Virus record (IMG/VR): IMGVR_UViG_2690316227_000007
Source of the DNA: a virus
Taxonomy: Duplodnaviria; Heunggongvirae; Uroviricota; Caudoviricetes
Strand: one strand, 5' to 3'
Length of the DNA stretch: 5,905 nucleotides
In this document: positions 273 to 5,905 of the stretch, piece after piece
Layout of the letters: each line of letters starts with the position of its first letter
Position numbering within the stretch: position 1 is the first letter of the stretch
The notes under the pieces: generated by a model
Seen by the model: only the letters and a program-made list of their open reading frames with translations
Told to the model about the DNA's origin: nothing
Databases searched by the model: none
Position numbers and translations under genes: made by a program

Positions 273-695
273 TCACTTCAATAAATATCGAGCATTTCCC
301 TGATAGAATGCTAGTATGCGCTGCATAACTTCACTCTTCCGGCACTCGCGACAGATTATGTTCTGACGCCTGTCGTAGCGACGTATTTCTCCGTCAGGTA
401 ATGACCAGATAAGGTCCGGATCAACCGCAGATGGTTCCTTCAGCTTTGCCCTTGAGAGCTTTTTACGGGCATTTTGCCAGTCCTTACGCGCCTGTTCAGA
501 CGGGAATAACCCGTAACCAGAGTTGTATACATCGCCGCTGGCAACCAGCTCTCTTGCGAGAACGCTCATCAGATATCTTGTCGCACCTGTCTTGACTTCC
601 AGTTGCCGTAACGTCTCACGCCCACTCCGGCGTACGAGTTCAACAACCTGCCCTTTAATTTTTTCCCGCTCTTCTTGTGTAAAAACTTTTGCCAC
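273..695 (-). CDS. hypothetical protein, 140 aa; possible helix-turn-helix DNA-binding protein, function unknown
   Basis: Complete minus-strand ORF from the six-frame track. GTG start at 693-695 preceded by AGGAGG (plus 700-705) with a 4-nt spacer; TGA stop at 273-275. Begins 40 nt downstream of the replication gene stop, same strand. Charged, protein-like composition with a plausible HTH stretch (ETLRQLEVKTGATRYLMSVLAREL). No Walker A motif. No family recognised from memory. Confidence 0.6.
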   Translation of the reverse strand: MAKVFTQEEREKIKGQVVELVRRSGRETLRQLEVKTGATRYLMSVLARELVASGDVYNSGYGLFPSEQARKDWQNARKKLSRAKLKEPSAVDPDLIWSLPDGEIRRYDRRQNIICRECRKSEVMQRILAFYQGNARYLLK

Positions 696-735
696 AAGCC
701 CTCCTGAAAATTACCTCATGACCAGAAATTAACAC

Positions 736-1725
736 TTACCCCCTGAAGCCCGGCGGAATTTCGGTATCCGGCTCAGAAATATGATTCACACAACGCTGTA
801 CAGACGAACGCCCCAGGCGGATAACCAGTTCATCCCATTTTTCGCGAAGCTTTGACGGACTCATGATATTTTTTACCCAGAATGGATCCCGCTGCACCCG
901 ACCAAACATTTCACAAATTTGTCTGTGAGTTCTGCCATCCAGCATCCGCATTGTGCGCACGTCGTTGGCCCATGCGGTCCAGTTGGGTTCTTTCGGTCGC
1001 GAAATCTCGCCATCATCGCTGGCGGCCTGCTCGTAAAGACTCACGATTCGCCCCCAGATCCACTGCGCACACGCCAAATCTTCCTGGCTGCCCCACTGGC
1101 GTTTTTTCGCACTGAACACAACCGCGTCAGGGTGTCGGGTTAAAAAATCCTGTTCAACCGTCTGCGGGTCCGGTTGCGAAGCTTCCGGACGAGAAGTCTT
1201 TTTATTCTCTGTAGTAATCTCTGTTGTATTCTCTGTAGTAATCTCTGTTGTATTCTCTGTAAGATCATCAGGCCATTTTGACCCGATGACATTGAGTCGT
1301 TTTGAACCAATGGAGCGTTTCATTTTGACCTCTTCCATCGTGTCATTTTGACCTGATGGAGCGGCGCATTTTAAACCGATGGATTCGCTCAATTTGCCAC
1401 CATCTAAAAGCTCGCTCCCGTAGTTGATCGTGTAGAAATTGGTCATATCGCGCTTTGATTTATTGAGCTTTTCACAACGCAAAAGCCCCAGCGTTTTCAG
1501 ACTTGCAAACGCGCGCTTTAACGTTGACTCTGACCAGAATGGGAACTGTTCCAGCCATTGTTCCGTTGTGTTATAAATCCAGCGAACACCATCACATTCC
1601 ATGCCGGAGTTGGTATCTCTCAACCAGTAGTGCAGTTGTTGCAAAACAATGGCTTCGTTTAAGCCAATTTTCATTGCCAGCTGCGTGTTTATAACCAGTG
1701 GGCGTTCAGCAAAAAGAAGACTCAT
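736..1725 (-). CDS. phage replication initiation protein (O-like / replisome-organizer N-terminal domain with DnaT-like C-terminal tail)
   Basis: Long minus-strand ORF ending at TAA 736-738. The N-terminal ~100 aa (MSLLFAERPLVINTQLAMKIGLNEAIVLQQLHYWL...) resemble phage O-like DNA-binding domains. The C-terminus ...VNHISEPDTEIPPGFRG closely matches my recollection of the E. coli DnaT C-terminus (...SEPDSQIPPGFRG). Start is uncertain: ATG at 1723-1725 (weak GGATGG upstream, overlaps the upstream gene stop by 20 nt) is preferred; alternatives are TTG at 1779 (track) or ATG at 1672-1674. Confidence 0.8.
   Translation of the reverse strand: MSLLFAERPLVINTQLAMKIGLNEAIVLQQLHYWLRDTNSGMECDGVRWIYNTTEQWLEQFPFWSESTLKRAFASLKTLGLLRCEKLNKSKRDMTNFYTINYGSELLDGGKLSESIGLKCAAPSGQNDTMEEVKMKRSIGSKRLNVIGSKWPDDLTENTTEITTENTTEITTENKKTSRPEASQPDPQTVEQDFLTRHPDAVVFSAKKRQWGSQEDLACAQWIWGRIVSLYEQAASDDGEISRPKEPNWTAWANDVRTMRMLDGRTHRQICEMFGRVQRDPFWVKNIMSPSKLREKWDELVIRLGRSSVQRCVNHISEPDTEIPPGFRG
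1205..1264. repeat. five tandem 12-bp direct repeats (ttctctgtagta / atctctgttgta alternating) inside the replication gene
   Basis: Read directly: ttctctgtagta atctctgttgta ttctctgtagta atctctgttgta ttctctgtaaga. Encodes the peptide repeat TENTTEITTENTTEITTEN in the interdomain linker of the initiator. Confidence 0.8.
1274..1387. repeat. five ~23-bp iteron-like direct repeats (consensus cATTTTGACC-n-GATGGAgcg); putative origin of replication embedded in the initiator gene
   Basis: Cores cattttgacc at 1274, cgttttgaacc at 1298, cattttgacc at 1321 and 1344, cattttaaacc at 1367, at a regular 23-24 bp spacing, each followed by a GATGGA-like element. By analogy, the lambda origin lies as iterons within the O gene. 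Confidence 0.55.
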
Positions 1726-2227
1726 AATTCCATCCAGCTTTTTGTTGGTATTGCTGTCGATACGCAAGCTTGAAAGCAATTGCTTTTTCTATAAGTTCGT
1801 CAGTTTCACGATCTACAACGGCAGGATCTGCAAAAAGCAGTCCGGATTCCACCACATCGCCATATTCTTTATTTAACCCGGCGATCATGTACGTAATACT
1901 TTTTCCATCACTGATCTCACGATACAACCTGAAATCACTAATCCGGATAGCCTCCATAATCGCAGGCACTAGCGCCGTGAACTTTTCACGCTTATCCCTG
2001 GTGTCGATAGCCTTCCAGCGTTCGAATATCTTCACTCGATTAACGCCAAGCGCTCGCTGATCAACCGCGCCACCTTCATCTGTGACACGCTGAACATCGA
2101 TGTTCGGGCGCTCTTTCAAAGCCCAGAATGCTTCAGTGATTAATATCGTCGCCTGCTCCTGTGTCATTCCTGGTCGACATATCCAGGCATCCAGAGCCTC
2201 ACGAGCCTGTTCAGGAGTGATTTTCAT
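1706..2227 (-). CDS. 173-aa protein in the CII / YdaT position downstream of the Cro-like gene; putative regulator (YdaT-like), function unverified
   Basis: Complete ORF with ATG at 2225-2227 and TGA at 1706-1708. The start overlaps the dicC stop by 17 nt and the stop overlaps the preferred start of the replication gene by 20 nt, suggesting translational coupling. Assignment to the YdaT family is by position and size only, not by verified similarity. Confidence 0.65.
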   Translation of the reverse strand: MKITPEQAREALDAWICRPGMTQEQATILITEAFWALKERPNIDVQRVTDEGGAVDQRALGVNRVKIFERWKAIDTRDKREKFTALVPAIMEAIRISDFRLYREISDGKSITYMIAGLNKEYGDVVESGLLFADPAVVDRETDELIEKAIAFKLAYRQQYQQKAGWNYESSFC

Positions 2228-2441
2228 TGTTCAACCGCCCCGCCCGCTTCGTCTTACGATATTCATCATAAACTTTGGGATCATACTGAAGCTCCCCGCC
2301 AGATGCCTCCTGTAGACGCATCGCGCGACCTTCGGGAACTAAATCCCCTTTCCAGCTATAAAGCGAAGCCAAACGAATACCTGCTGCTTGTGCAAGTTTT
2401 GTTTTTGAACCGAAATACAAAAGAGCGTCAGTTTTAAGCAT
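2211..2441 (-). CDS. dicC: DicC, Cro-like HTH regulator (76 aa)
   Basis: ORF MLKTDALLYFGSKTKLAQAAGIRLASLYSWKGDLVPEGRAMRLQEASGGELQYDPKVYDEYRKTKRAGRLNNENHS matches my recollection of E. coli DicC in length and sequence. Divergent from dicA. ATG at 2439-2441 with AAGGTG about 7 nt upstream on the minus strand. Confidence 0.9.
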   Translation of the reverse strand: MLKTDALLYFGSKTKLAQAAGIRLASLYSWKGDLVPEGRAMRLQEASGGELQYDPKVYDEYRKTKRAGRLNNENHS

Positions 2442-2524: not shown

Positions 2525-2932
2525 ATGGAAACAAAAAATTTAACTATCGGCGAACGCATTAGGTATCGTCGGAAAAACCTCAAACACACCCAAAGGTCTC
2601 TTGCTAAAGCCCTGAAAATCTCCCATGTGTCTGTATCACAATGGGAACGGGATGATAGTGAACCTACAGGGAAGAACCTTTTTGCCCTCAGCAAAGTATT
2701 GCAATGCTCACCAACATGGATTCTATTTGGCGATGAAGACAAGCAACCAACACCACCTGTTGAGAAGCCAGTTGCCTTATCCCCCAAAGAACTAGAGCTC
2801 CTTGAGCTGTTTAATGCACTGCCAGAATCAGAACAGGATACCCAGCTCGCCGAAATGCGAGCTCGAGTAAAAAACTTCAATAAACTCTTTGAAGAATTAC
2901 TAAAAGCCCGTCAGCGGACAAATAAAAGATAA
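2525..2932 (+). CDS. dicA: DicA, XRE-family HTH repressor (CI-like) of the dicB operon, 135 aa
   Basis: ORF METKNLTIGERIRYRRKNLKHTQRSLAKALKISHVSVSQWER... (135 aa) matches my recollection of E. coli Qin DicA almost exactly. HTH_3-type motif (QRSLAKALKISHVSVSQWE). Divergent from dicC. Confidence 0.93.
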   Translation: METKNLTIGERIRYRRKNLKHTQRSLAKALKISHVSVSQWERDDSEPTGKNLFALSKVLQCSPTWILFGDEDKQPTPPVEKPVALSPKELELLELFNALPESEQDTQLAEMRARVKNFNKLFEELLKARQRTNKR

Positions 2933-3973: not shown

Positions 3974-4030
3974 TTTCTGGTGACGTTTGGCGGTATCAGT
4001 TTTACTCCGTGACTGCTCTGCCGCCCTTTT
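3974..4030 (+). ncRNA. dicF: DicF small regulatory RNA
   Basis: Sequence TTTCTGGTGACGTTTGGCGGTATCAGTTTTACTCCGTGACTGCTCTGCCGCCC followed by TTTTT matches my recollection of E. coli DicF (about 53 nt). Located between ydfC and dicB as in the Qin dicB operon. Ends are uncertain by a few nt. Confidence 0.85.
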
Positions 4031-4670: not shown

Positions 4671-5905
4671 ATGAGTAAAGTCTTTATTTGCGCCGCCATT
4701 CCTGACGAACTGGCAACAAGGGAAGAAGGCGCTGTGGCTGTAGCCACAGCTATTGAAGCTGGCGACGAACGCCGTGCTCGAGCAAAATTTCACTGGCAAT
4801 TCCTGGAACATTATCCGGCTGCTCAGGACTGCGCTTATAAATTTATTATCTGCGAGGATAAACCTGGCATACCCCGCCCTGCCCTCGATTCATGGGATGC
4901 TGAATATATGCAGGAAAACCGCTGGGATGAGGATTCTGCTTCTTTTGTCCCGGTTGAGACTGAATCCGATCTGATGAACGTCACTTTTGACAAGCTGGCC
5001 CCTGAAGTACAGAACGCTCTCATGGTTAAGTTCGACACATGTGAAAACATCACCGTTGATATGGTTATTAGCGCACAGGAATTGTTGCAGGAAGACATGG
5101 CAACATTCAACGGACATATCGTTGAAGCGTTGATGAAAATGCCAGAAGTTAACGCCATGTATCCGGAGCTTAAGCTGCATGCCATCGGGTGGGTTAAGCA
5201 TAAATGTAAGCCTGGTGCCAAATGGCCCGAAATTCAGGCAGAGATGCGCATCTGGAAAAAACGTCGCGAAGGTGAACGCAAGGAAACCGGAAAATACACG
5301 TCTGTTGTTGATCTCGCCCGCGCCAGAGTCAATCAACAGCACACTGAAAATTCAACAGGAAAAATCAGCCTGGTCATTGCTGCCATTCATCGCGAATACA
5401 AGCAGACATGGAAAACACTGGATGACGAACTGGCCTACGCTCTCTGGCCTGGTGATGTGGATGCCGGAAACATTGACGGCAGCATCCATCGCTGGGCAAA
5501 AAATGAAGTTATCGACAACTACCGCGAAGACTGGAAGCGTATCTCGGCATCAATGCGCAAACAGCCTGATGCCCTTCGCTACGACCGCCAGACTATTTTT
5601 GGCCTTGTCCGTGAACGTCCGATCGACATTCACAAAGACCCTGTGGCACTGAACAAATACATTACTGAATACCTGACTACAAAGGGCGTGTTTGAAGATG
5701 AAGGAACAAATCAGAGCGCAACTGATACTCTCTCGTCGCCAGTACCAGAAACTGATGCAGTGGAAACGGCAATTCCGGACAACGAAAAAACCGAATGCAA
5801 AGTGGAAGTCGAACCATCTGTAGAGCGTGAGGGGCCGTTCTACTTCCTCTTCACCGACAAGGATGGCGAAAAATACGGTCGCGCAAACAAACTTTCTGGT
5901 CTGGA
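4671..5905 (+). CDS. ydfE: YdfE-like protein, 5' part of a long ORF that runs off the right edge (at least 411 codons, no stop)
   Basis: Hand translation from ATG 4671 (GAGG 10 nt upstream) is open to the window end: MSKVFICAAIPDELATREEGAVAVATAIEAGDERRARAKFHWQFLEHYPAAQDCAYKFIICEDKPG..., N-terminus matching recalled YdfE. Absent from the ORF track because it has no stop inside the window. Confidence 0.8.
   Translation, partial: MSKVFICAAIPDELATREEGAVAVATAIEAGDERRARAKFHWQFLEHYPAAQDCAYKFIICEDKPGIPRPALDSWDAEYMQENRWDEDSASFVPVETESDLMNVTFDKLAPEVQNALMVKFDTCENITVDMVISAQELLQEDMATFNGHIVEALMKMPEVNAMYPELKLHAIGWVKHKCKPGAKWPEIQAEMRIWKKRREGERKETGKYTSVVDLARARVNQQHTENSTGKISLVIAAIHREYKQTWKTLDDELAYALWPGDVDAGNIDGSIHRWAKNEVIDNYREDWKRISASMRKQPDALRYDRQTIFGLVRERPIDIHKDPVALNKYITEYLTTKGVFEDEGTNQSATDTLSSPVPETDAVETAIPDNEKTECKVEVEPSVEREGPFYFLFTDKDGEKYGRANKLSGL

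Follow-up and report, generated by a model that had tools for sequence, protein, structure and literature searches.

In phage lambda the replication initiator O consists of a DNA-binding N-terminus of the Phage_rep_O family, a linker encoded by origin DNA and a C-terminal domain; iterons and an A/T-rich region lie inside its gene, which follows cro and cII in the rightward early operon and has gene P next to it. In the host Escherichia coli, dnaT is followed by dnaC, and the tail of DnaT is described in a review as a highly flexible segment of 20 residues (PMC5778457). How PriA, PriB and DnaT hand over to DnaB-DnaC was stated to be unknown in a structural paper of 2026 (PMC13377028). Here we describe a phage gene that shares features with both systems, the replication initiator gene at 736-1725 on the minus strand of the IMG/VR virus record IMGVR_UViG_2690316227_000007, a stretch of 5,905 nucleotides which is called the window throughout. 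The encoded protein is built like lambda O, ends in the tail of DnaT and has no loader gene next to it, and in a comparison of several hundred phage loci the type of tail covaries with the type of loader encoded downstream. On balance we lean towards an account in which this lambda-O-like initiator uses its copy of the DnaT tail to engage the DnaB-DnaC complex of the host at its own origin.

The product of the gene is labelled a hypothetical protein in RefSeq (WP_000054502.1). Its residues 17-329 match PHROG 391 ('replication initiation O-like') at positions 11-298 of 298 and thus over the full length of the profile (E=5.5e-97). In BLASTP lambda O residues 135-270 align to it with 34.6% identity over 156 amino acids (E=1e-26), and lambda O 180-270 matches the hidden Markov model of its C-terminal-domain family (E=7e-43), which is wide and comprises 3034 representative proteins at E<1e-3. 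An AlphaFold2 model, built on an alignment of 101 sequences and rated by the predicted local distance difference test (pLDDT), shows a DNA-binding type of N-terminus, a linker and a homologous C-terminal domain in the same order as in lambda O:

736-1725, minus strand: replication initiator gene, 329 amino acids, ATG start, stop codon at 736-738, identical to the RefSeq coding sequence.
1411-1698, minus strand: N-terminal winged-helix domain, residues ~10-105, AlphaFold2 pLDDT 82-93, presumed to bind the iterons.
1180-1398, minus strand: disordered linker, residues ~110-182, pLDDT <50; its coding DNA holds the origin elements.
802-1167, minus strand: helical C-terminal domain, residues ~187-308, of the lambda-O C-terminal type, modelled confidently by AlphaFold2.
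739-801, minus strand: disordered C-terminal tail, residues 309-329, VQRCVNHISEPDTEIPPGFRG, matching DnaT 158-179, pLDDT 41-61.

Foldseek matches in the PDB are confined to the winged helix, with none elsewhere in the protein, and the best of them are with RepA initiators of staphylococcal plasmids, in the N-terminal domain (4pql, 4pt7, 5kbj; E ~0.01-0.07). The C-terminal domain may bear a weak likeness to the DnaD/G39P-like fold. By architecture, C-terminal domain and predicted in-gene origin the protein is a lambda-O-like initiator. It is not lambda-O-like in its N-terminal Pfam family, its tail or its partner gene: Pfam gave no match to it at E<=0.01, Phage_rep_O (PF04492) included, to which lambda O itself scores 5.7e-36.

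The initial annotation had noticed a C-terminus like that of DnaT, and for the last 21-22 residues this is borne out. The end of the initiator, ...VNHISEPDTEIPPGFRG, corresponds to the final 21-22 residues of DnaT from E. coli, and over SEPDTEIPPGFRG versus SEPDSQIPPGFRG, the extreme C-terminus of both proteins, 11 of 13 residues are identical. The NCBIfam profile of DnaT (PRK02854) hits the initiator at E=0.003, only with profile positions 158-179 of 179 and with 17 bits against a cut-off of 201; the PDB chains 2ru8, 6aep and 9zbt of DnaT match the tail at E=0.009-0.03, and pairwise BLASTP with DnaT gives E=2e-8, again for the tail only. Many phage replication proteins end in this same tail, so the match is not a matter of chance. 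Among 108 DnaT orthologues, R161, D162, N164, S167, P169, D170, I173, P174, G176, F177, R178 and G179 are conserved to at least 95%, and the core shared by initiator and DnaT reads R-D-x-N-x-x-S-x-P-D-x-x-I-P-x-G-F-R-G, with PD..IPxGFRG as its invariant part. The segment is flexible in DnaT according to the 2RU8 nuclear magnetic resonance structure (PMC5778457) and disordered in the model of the initiator.

The expectation of a whole DnaT-type domain in the C-terminal part did not hold beyond this tail. The Pfam domain PF17948, which represents the three-helix bundle of DnaT (89-154) that binds single-stranded DNA (ssDNA), is not found in the initiator, whereas DnaT itself scores 3.7e-21. A comparison by hhalign of the C-terminal-domain family, tail removed, with DnaT 84-157 yielded a probability of 0.2%, obtained with a shallow DnaT alignment (orthologues of at least 71% identity), and neither NCBIfam nor BLASTP matched the N-terminal domain or the acidic linker of DnaT to the initiator. 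The likeness to DnaT is limited to the disordered tail, which is a short linear motif and not a DnaT domain. The initiator is not a member of the DnaT family, since three of the four defining features are absent; it has neither the N-terminal domain of DnaT nor the acidic linker for PriB nor the PF17948 bundle, and it is origin-specific and not a restart factor. 'Primosomal protein' is already the label of some database records for such phage proteins.

To compare tails with loaders, the gene after each initiator was classified in several hundred phage loci. The alignment of the C-terminal domain retrieved only near-identical relatives, and the queries P0133 and P0147 retrieved 3 and 9 loci; the diversity of the loci came mainly from the queries P0181 and P0126, a dnaC query and a scan with a DNA pattern. 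After a '...KLREKWD.L' helix, members of the C-terminal-domain family carry a DnaT-like tail (...PD..IPxGFRG), a tail of the type ...NTDW..G.., one of the type ...HWNS.EAWE.. or one of several others; lambda O, with its end ...LTNTDWIYGVDL, is of the NTDW type. In a set of 163 loci the gene next to initiators with DnaT-like tail was DnaC-like in 40 cases, a DUF977 gene in 42 and another non-loader gene in 28 (mostly PerC-like, plus ParB-like proteins and methyltransferases), and never lambda-P-like. A lambda-P-like gene followed nine out of nine NTDW tails and 32 out of 34 HWNS tails (HWNxxExW).

The same picture emerges from the side of the loader: 75 of 77 phage dnaC-like genes are preceded by the gene of a protein that ends in IPPGF(R/S)G. 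These 75 tail-bearing partners belong to three unrelated architectures, namely lambda-O-like proteins (52), a family of 406 amino acids (10) and YdaU/DUF1376 proteins (13). An unbiased sample was drawn by DNA pattern and consists of 117 viral open reading frames (ORFs) that end in IPPGFRG-stop; the next gene is DnaC-like in 57, DUF977 in 45 and another non-loader gene in 11, while four have none or lie at a contig end, and not one of the 117 is followed by a lambda-P-like or DnaB-like gene. With one genome per bacterial species, the pattern scan led to 51 genuine tail-bearing ORFs, all from Enterobacterales (44 full dnaT, one truncated dnaT, six prophage genes), 50 of which have a DnaC homologue next to them and the remaining one lies at the edge of its locus. 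About half of the bacterial pattern matches were chance matches in unrelated phyla, none of them at a real ORF end, and were filtered out.

After dereplication at 50% identity with the tails removed, 22 clusters were left. In 11 of them a DnaT-like tail goes with DnaC, and in five a W-type tail goes with P; the opposite pairings do not occur (Fisher p=2.3e-4). Within the largest lambda-O-like cluster, the bodies of which are at least 50% identical, proteins with DnaT-like tails are followed by DnaC (49), DUF977 (22) or other genes (23) and never by P, and proteins with HWN tails by P (26) and never by DnaC. No DnaT-like tail adjoins a P-type loader in the phage loci classified. Initiators upstream of DnaB-like helicase genes (49) have other, non-DnaT-like tails and may represent a third pairing of initiator and partner. 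These 49 IMG/VR proteins, which were matched by the N-terminal domain of P0181, lack the lambda-O-type C-terminal domain as well as all three tail types, and the representative of their main cluster ends ...EVREGDRDDR.

The tail is also found on other protein bodies. The 406-amino-acid family (L308 2268-3494, L312 and ~35 more IMG/VR loci) has an unrelated body and yet the exact 20-residue tail of the window, QRCVNHISEPDTEIPPGFRG, which points to recombination precisely at the start of the tail; this family occurs both with and without a dnaC-like gene. Phage proteins of 270-275 amino acids (IMG/VR loci L387, L403, L410, L432, L446), which have no adjacent loader, end ...FHHDQWQQKLARSVQLSR...DVNAVPEPDSEIPPGFRG, a near-exact copy of the last helix of DnaT plus the tail, and the 271-amino-acid proteins among the further carriers contain a true DnaT-like helix (FHHDQWQQKLARS). 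In the Rac prophage of E. coli K-12, YdaU ends ...VNTVSLPDSAIPPGFRG, and its gene stands, like the initiator gene of the window, just downstream of a YdaT/cII-like gene in an early-right operon (racR-ydaS-ydaT-ydaU-ydaV). YdaU differs from the initiator by its unrelated DUF1376 body, by the DnaC-like loader YdaV encoded next to it, and by a likeness to DnaT which extends further inward (YdaU 211-285 versus DnaT 111-179, 40% identity). Together with the proteins of 270-275 amino acids, YdaU suggests that host DnaT may be related to phage replication proteins. We found no discussion of the tail motif, the DnaT-like end of YdaU or the link between tail and loader in the literature searched.

What follows the initiator gene in the window is a short spacer and a non-loader gene:

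696-735, minus strand: junction, a 40-nt spacer at the site where siblings carry a 747-bp dnaC homologue (from the alignment with sibling L009).
273-695, minus strand: DUF977 / Ren-like gene, 140 amino acids, no loader and dispensable for the module (Pfam DUF977 E=2e-30; PHROG 142 'Ren-like exclusion protein').

In IMG/VR, 79 loci encode a C-terminal domain plus tail at least 94% identical to that of the window; in ~40 of them a dnaC homologue comes next, in ~40 DUF977. The DnaC homologue of the siblings has 246-248 amino acids, is 50% identical to E. coli DnaC (E=4e-90) and starts 6 nt past the stop codon of the initiator, so that initiator and dnaC homologue are arranged like dnaT and dnaC of the host. 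The window and a dnaC-carrying sibling (L009) are 99.6% identical through the initiator stop codon and become similar again where dnaC stops and DUF977 has its ribosome-binding site. The dnaC gene next to the initiator is thus a clean presence/absence polymorphism, and the window is the loader-less variant of the DnaT-tail/DnaC-type module grouping which we propose here: the tail is present and there is no dnaC next to it. The spacer ends ...ATGAGGTAATTTTCAGGAGGGCTTGTG, like the 3' end of the sibling dnaC-like gene with its ribosome-binding site (...GTGAAGTAATTTCAGGAGGACTTGTG), and may be the scar of a dnaC loss or a recombination hotspot.

The initial annotation had described the 140-residue protein as no loader, which agrees with its DUF977/Ren-like assignment and its lack of a Walker A motif, and had supposed that the prophage encodes no loader at all. 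In the window, as in the best-matching E. coli prophage from the module through antiterminator Q, no homologue of DnaC, DnaB or lambda P was found. A dnaC-like gene directly downstream, which the initial annotation had named as a finding that would refute it, is absent from the prophage of the window itself and present in about half of the siblings of at least 94% identity. Neither the two DnaC queries (one from E. coli, one a phage DnaC-like protein) nor DnaB nor lambda P matched anything by tblastn in the whole genome of phage HannyBb (45,272 bp); Pfam assigns its other sizeable early proteins to QueH, DUF968, DicB, DUF1391 and an exonuclease. Shigella phage SfII (41 kb) represents a second, distant lineage with an initiator that ends ...YDNVDYSQIPAGFRG, and its genome has no DnaC, DnaB, P or DUF977 homologue. 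In the lineage of SfII, SfIV and mEp460_4F5 the initiator is followed not by DUF977 but by a PerC-like protein of ~160 amino acids (SfII_42, 4783-5268; 22 IMG/VR loci). Because the viable phages HannyBb and SfII share the module, the loader-less state is not a product of prophage decay, and a decaying cryptic prophage was rejected as the explanation of the absent loader.

Absence of a loader was judged by tblastn and phmmer with DnaC and not by the Walker A pattern. E. coli DnaC and the phage DnaC-like genes have the variant GKPGTGKN, which lies outside the usual GK[ST] pattern; therefore GK[ST] is no valid test for a DnaC-type loader, and motif-based screens that report no loader may give false negatives.

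The DNA that encodes the linker contains two kinds of repeats:

1266-1381, no strand assigned: five partly palindromic iterons of ~23 bp, CATCrGGTCAAAATGnnnnGATG on the coding strand (direct-repeat families D2 and D3).
1200-1271, no strand assigned: A/T-rich tandem array adjoining the iterons (repeat family D1; Tandem Repeats Finder 1203-1261).

The iterons are spaced by 23-24 bp, with the core GGTCAAAATG at 1274, 1298, 1321, 1344 and 1367, and are the predicted initiator-binding part of the origin. In gene O of lambda four iterons of 18 bp are annotated, versus five of 23 bp here. The A/T-rich array consists of 4.7 copies of the 12-nt unit TCTCTGTAGTAA, or of 2.5 copies of a 24-nt unit, has an A+T content of 67% compared with 51.5% in the initiator gene, and is predicted to be the DNA-unwinding element. 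In the protein the linker repeats are translated to ...IGSKWPDDLTENTTEITTENTTEITTENKK. The copy number of the 24-nt unit varies among near-identical initiators (321 versus 329 amino acids, with one TENTTEIT unit fewer), so that the predicted unwinding element is length-polymorphic.

We envisage that the winged helix would bind the iterons and the initiator would oligomerise, upon which the neighbouring A/T-rich repeats would open, both steps being modelled on lambda O. The flexible tails could then catch a DnaC-type loader which carries DnaB and so bring the helicase to the opened origin. The initiator would thereby take the adaptor role of DnaT at its own origin, without PriA, PriB or DnaT. 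Many siblings encode a DnaC paralogue right after the tail and the phage of the window encodes none, and no loader was found in the prophage or in the viable phages with the same module, so that the loader of the host would have to be used; the loader-less phage of the window most likely uses host DnaC. In addition, diverged loader-less lineages keep the IPxGFRG core of the tail (...DYSQIPAGFRG in SfII, ...DTRIPEGFRG in others), which argues that the tail works without a phage dnaC. As phages with and without their own dnaC keep the same tail, too, the tail of the window most likely captures host DnaB-DnaC, by docking DnaC or the DnaB-DnaC complex. The most economical reading of these patterns would be that the tail is a loader-specific docking peptide, the DnaT-type version being specific to DnaC-family loaders or DnaB-DnaC.

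A much wider version of this idea is tentative and falls somewhat short of an even chance in our judgement: the tail of DnaT and of the phage proteins would be a docking peptide for DnaC-type loaders, phages would switch between loaders of the DnaC, lambda-P and DnaB type by swapping ~20 residues of tail on a constant body, the DnaT-DnaC pair of the host would be a domesticated phage pair, and loader-less phages would take DnaB-DnaC from the host. That O-type and DnaT-type pieces can be combined is on record: DopC has an O-like N-terminus and a DnaT C-terminal motif (HHpred to 2ru8) and is paired with the P-like DopE (Brezellec et al. 2017; PMC5509034). However, DopC is chromosomal, has lost the iterons, has no O-type C-terminal domain and has a P-type partner, whereas the initiator of the window keeps the domain and the origin and has no partner.

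Should it hold, the relation that tail type predicts loader type would be a simple rule for reading phage replication modules. It would explain temperate enterobacterial phages with a single replication gene (mEp460/HannyBb type, SfII/SfIV type). Phage replication modules reportedly termed 'initiator-solo' by Weigel and Seitz in 2006 (FEMS Microbiol Rev) similarly have the origin within the initiator gene and neither a helicase gene nor a loader gene beside it. For the host, the phage comparison offers the invariant flexible tail of DnaT as a different candidate for the recruitment of DnaC. If the rule is wrong, what is left is a lambda-O-like initiator, correctly annotated, whose tail is unusual.

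Several points weigh against tail-mediated capture of DnaB-DnaC. The loci came from queries biased towards the tail or dnaC and include many close relatives; the association of tail and dnaC could also come in part from physical linkage in mosaic phage genomes. Contact between the tail and DnaC or DnaB-DnaC is a candidate interaction deduced from genomic patterns, and the partner could equally be DnaB instead of DnaC. Likewise, the origin role of iterons and A/T-rich array is deduced from their arrangement only. Finally, a cryo-electron microscopy paper of 2026 proposed the N-terminal domain of DnaT, and not the tail, as the recruiter of DnaB/DnaC (PMC13377028), and a construct of DnaT 1-161 forms dimers and not trimers (PMC5778457), so that the tail may act in self-association.

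The initial annotation had read the C-terminus as a means to recruit the PriA/PriB/DnaT primosome of the host to the phage origin, and then DnaB via host DnaC, which we now consider unlikely. The tail is unmistakably derived from DnaT, the phage has no loader, and phiX174, Mu and ColE1 do use the PriA primosome (PMC5778457). In DnaT, however, it is the N-terminal domain and the acidic linker that contact PriB, and the helical C-terminal bundle that docks onto PriA and forms the filament on ssDNA, an involvement of the tail being unstated there (PMC13377028). All these parts, those for PriB as well as the filament-forming bundle, are missing from the initiator. A copy of the DnaT tail would moreover fill the partner site of DnaT and thus compete with DnaT or replace it, not recruit it. 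The tail covaries with dnaC-type genes, and phages which carry dnaC retain the same tail.

Quite unlikely, too, is that the tail is an oligomerisation or DnaT-binding element which packs against a neighbouring subunit or host DnaT and so stabilises the initiator oligomer or nucleates a filament of host DnaT on the unwound DNA. The paper on 6aep is said to propose, in its title, a new oligomerisation mechanism for the C-terminal domain of DnaT, and the entry sequence of 6aep includes the matching tail. The dimers of DnaT 1-161 have led to a model with C-terminal contacts (PMC5778457). On the other side, at least five protein bodies without relation to each other bear this tail and therefore offer no common packing surface, and self-association leaves unexplained the change of tail with loader type within a single initiator family.

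We regard it as improbable that the tail is just a leftover of the recombination that removed dnaC, with the helicase loaded in another way, be it by contact of the C-terminal domain with DnaB or host DnaC or with the help of DnaA. The presence or absence of dnaC beside initiator DNA of 99.6% identity indicates that its loss or gain is recent, and the best-matching genome has a degraded prophage whose integrase gene is frameshifted. Yet the IPxGFRG core is kept in distant loader-less lineages (SfII, the ECDTRIPEGFRG group, the 271-amino-acid family) although the preceding residues have diverged, and the loader-less form is carried by viable phages. The remaining alternative, that the DUF977 protein acts as an unrecognised non-ATPase loader or adaptor in the role of lambda P, was rejected as highly improbable, for although it sits right after the initiator and is the commonest neighbour of dnaC-less initiators with tail (45 of 117), SfII and 44 of 45 other loader-less loci with the tail lack it, siblings with a dnaC have it behind that gene, where a second loader would be superfluous, and it is of a Ren-like family, lambda ren likewise standing after P and not being a replication gene.

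The window comes from an E. coli lambdoid prophage whose immunity is of the DicA/DicC (Qin) type, and covers its early region; the initiator belongs to a prophage of the mEp460/HannyBb type. With at least 80% of its length covered, the window is present in 683 of 5426 complete E. coli genomes, and at 93% identity the initiator occurs in the sequenced phages mEp460_ev081 (annotated as 'Primosomal protein I'), PhiR42_1 and HannyBb. As in lambda, two genes, one cro-like and one cII-like, precede the initiator gene in the rightward early operon; the repressor gene is divergent:

1706-2227, minus strand: cII-like / YdaT-family gene (Pfam YdaT_toxin E=1.4e-5; PHROG 163 'CII-like transcriptional activator' E=2e-40).
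2211-2441, minus strand: dicC (cro-like), first gene of the operon of the initiator (NCBIfam DicC E=1.8e-47).
2525-2932, plus strand: dicA, divergent immunity repressor (NCBIfam DicA E=1.1e-70).

Initiator gene and cII-like/YdaT-family gene overlap by 20 nt (1706-1725), the ATG of the former standing within the 3' end of the latter. The longest ORF begins at a TTG at 1779; RefSeq and the homologues favour the ATG at 1725 as start. The first 83 bases of the window do not align in the 15 best-matching E. coli genomes, all matches beginning at base 84, which means that downstream of DUF977 the source genome is different. The plus strand of the window carries dicA, ydfA/B/C, the DicF small RNA, dicB, ydfD and the start of a large exonuclease gene. 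The antisense RNA DicF is located at 3975-4026 (plus strand; Rfam RF00039, 76.7 bits, E=3e-16), between ydfC and dicB, where the Qin prophage of E. coli K-12 has it, too.

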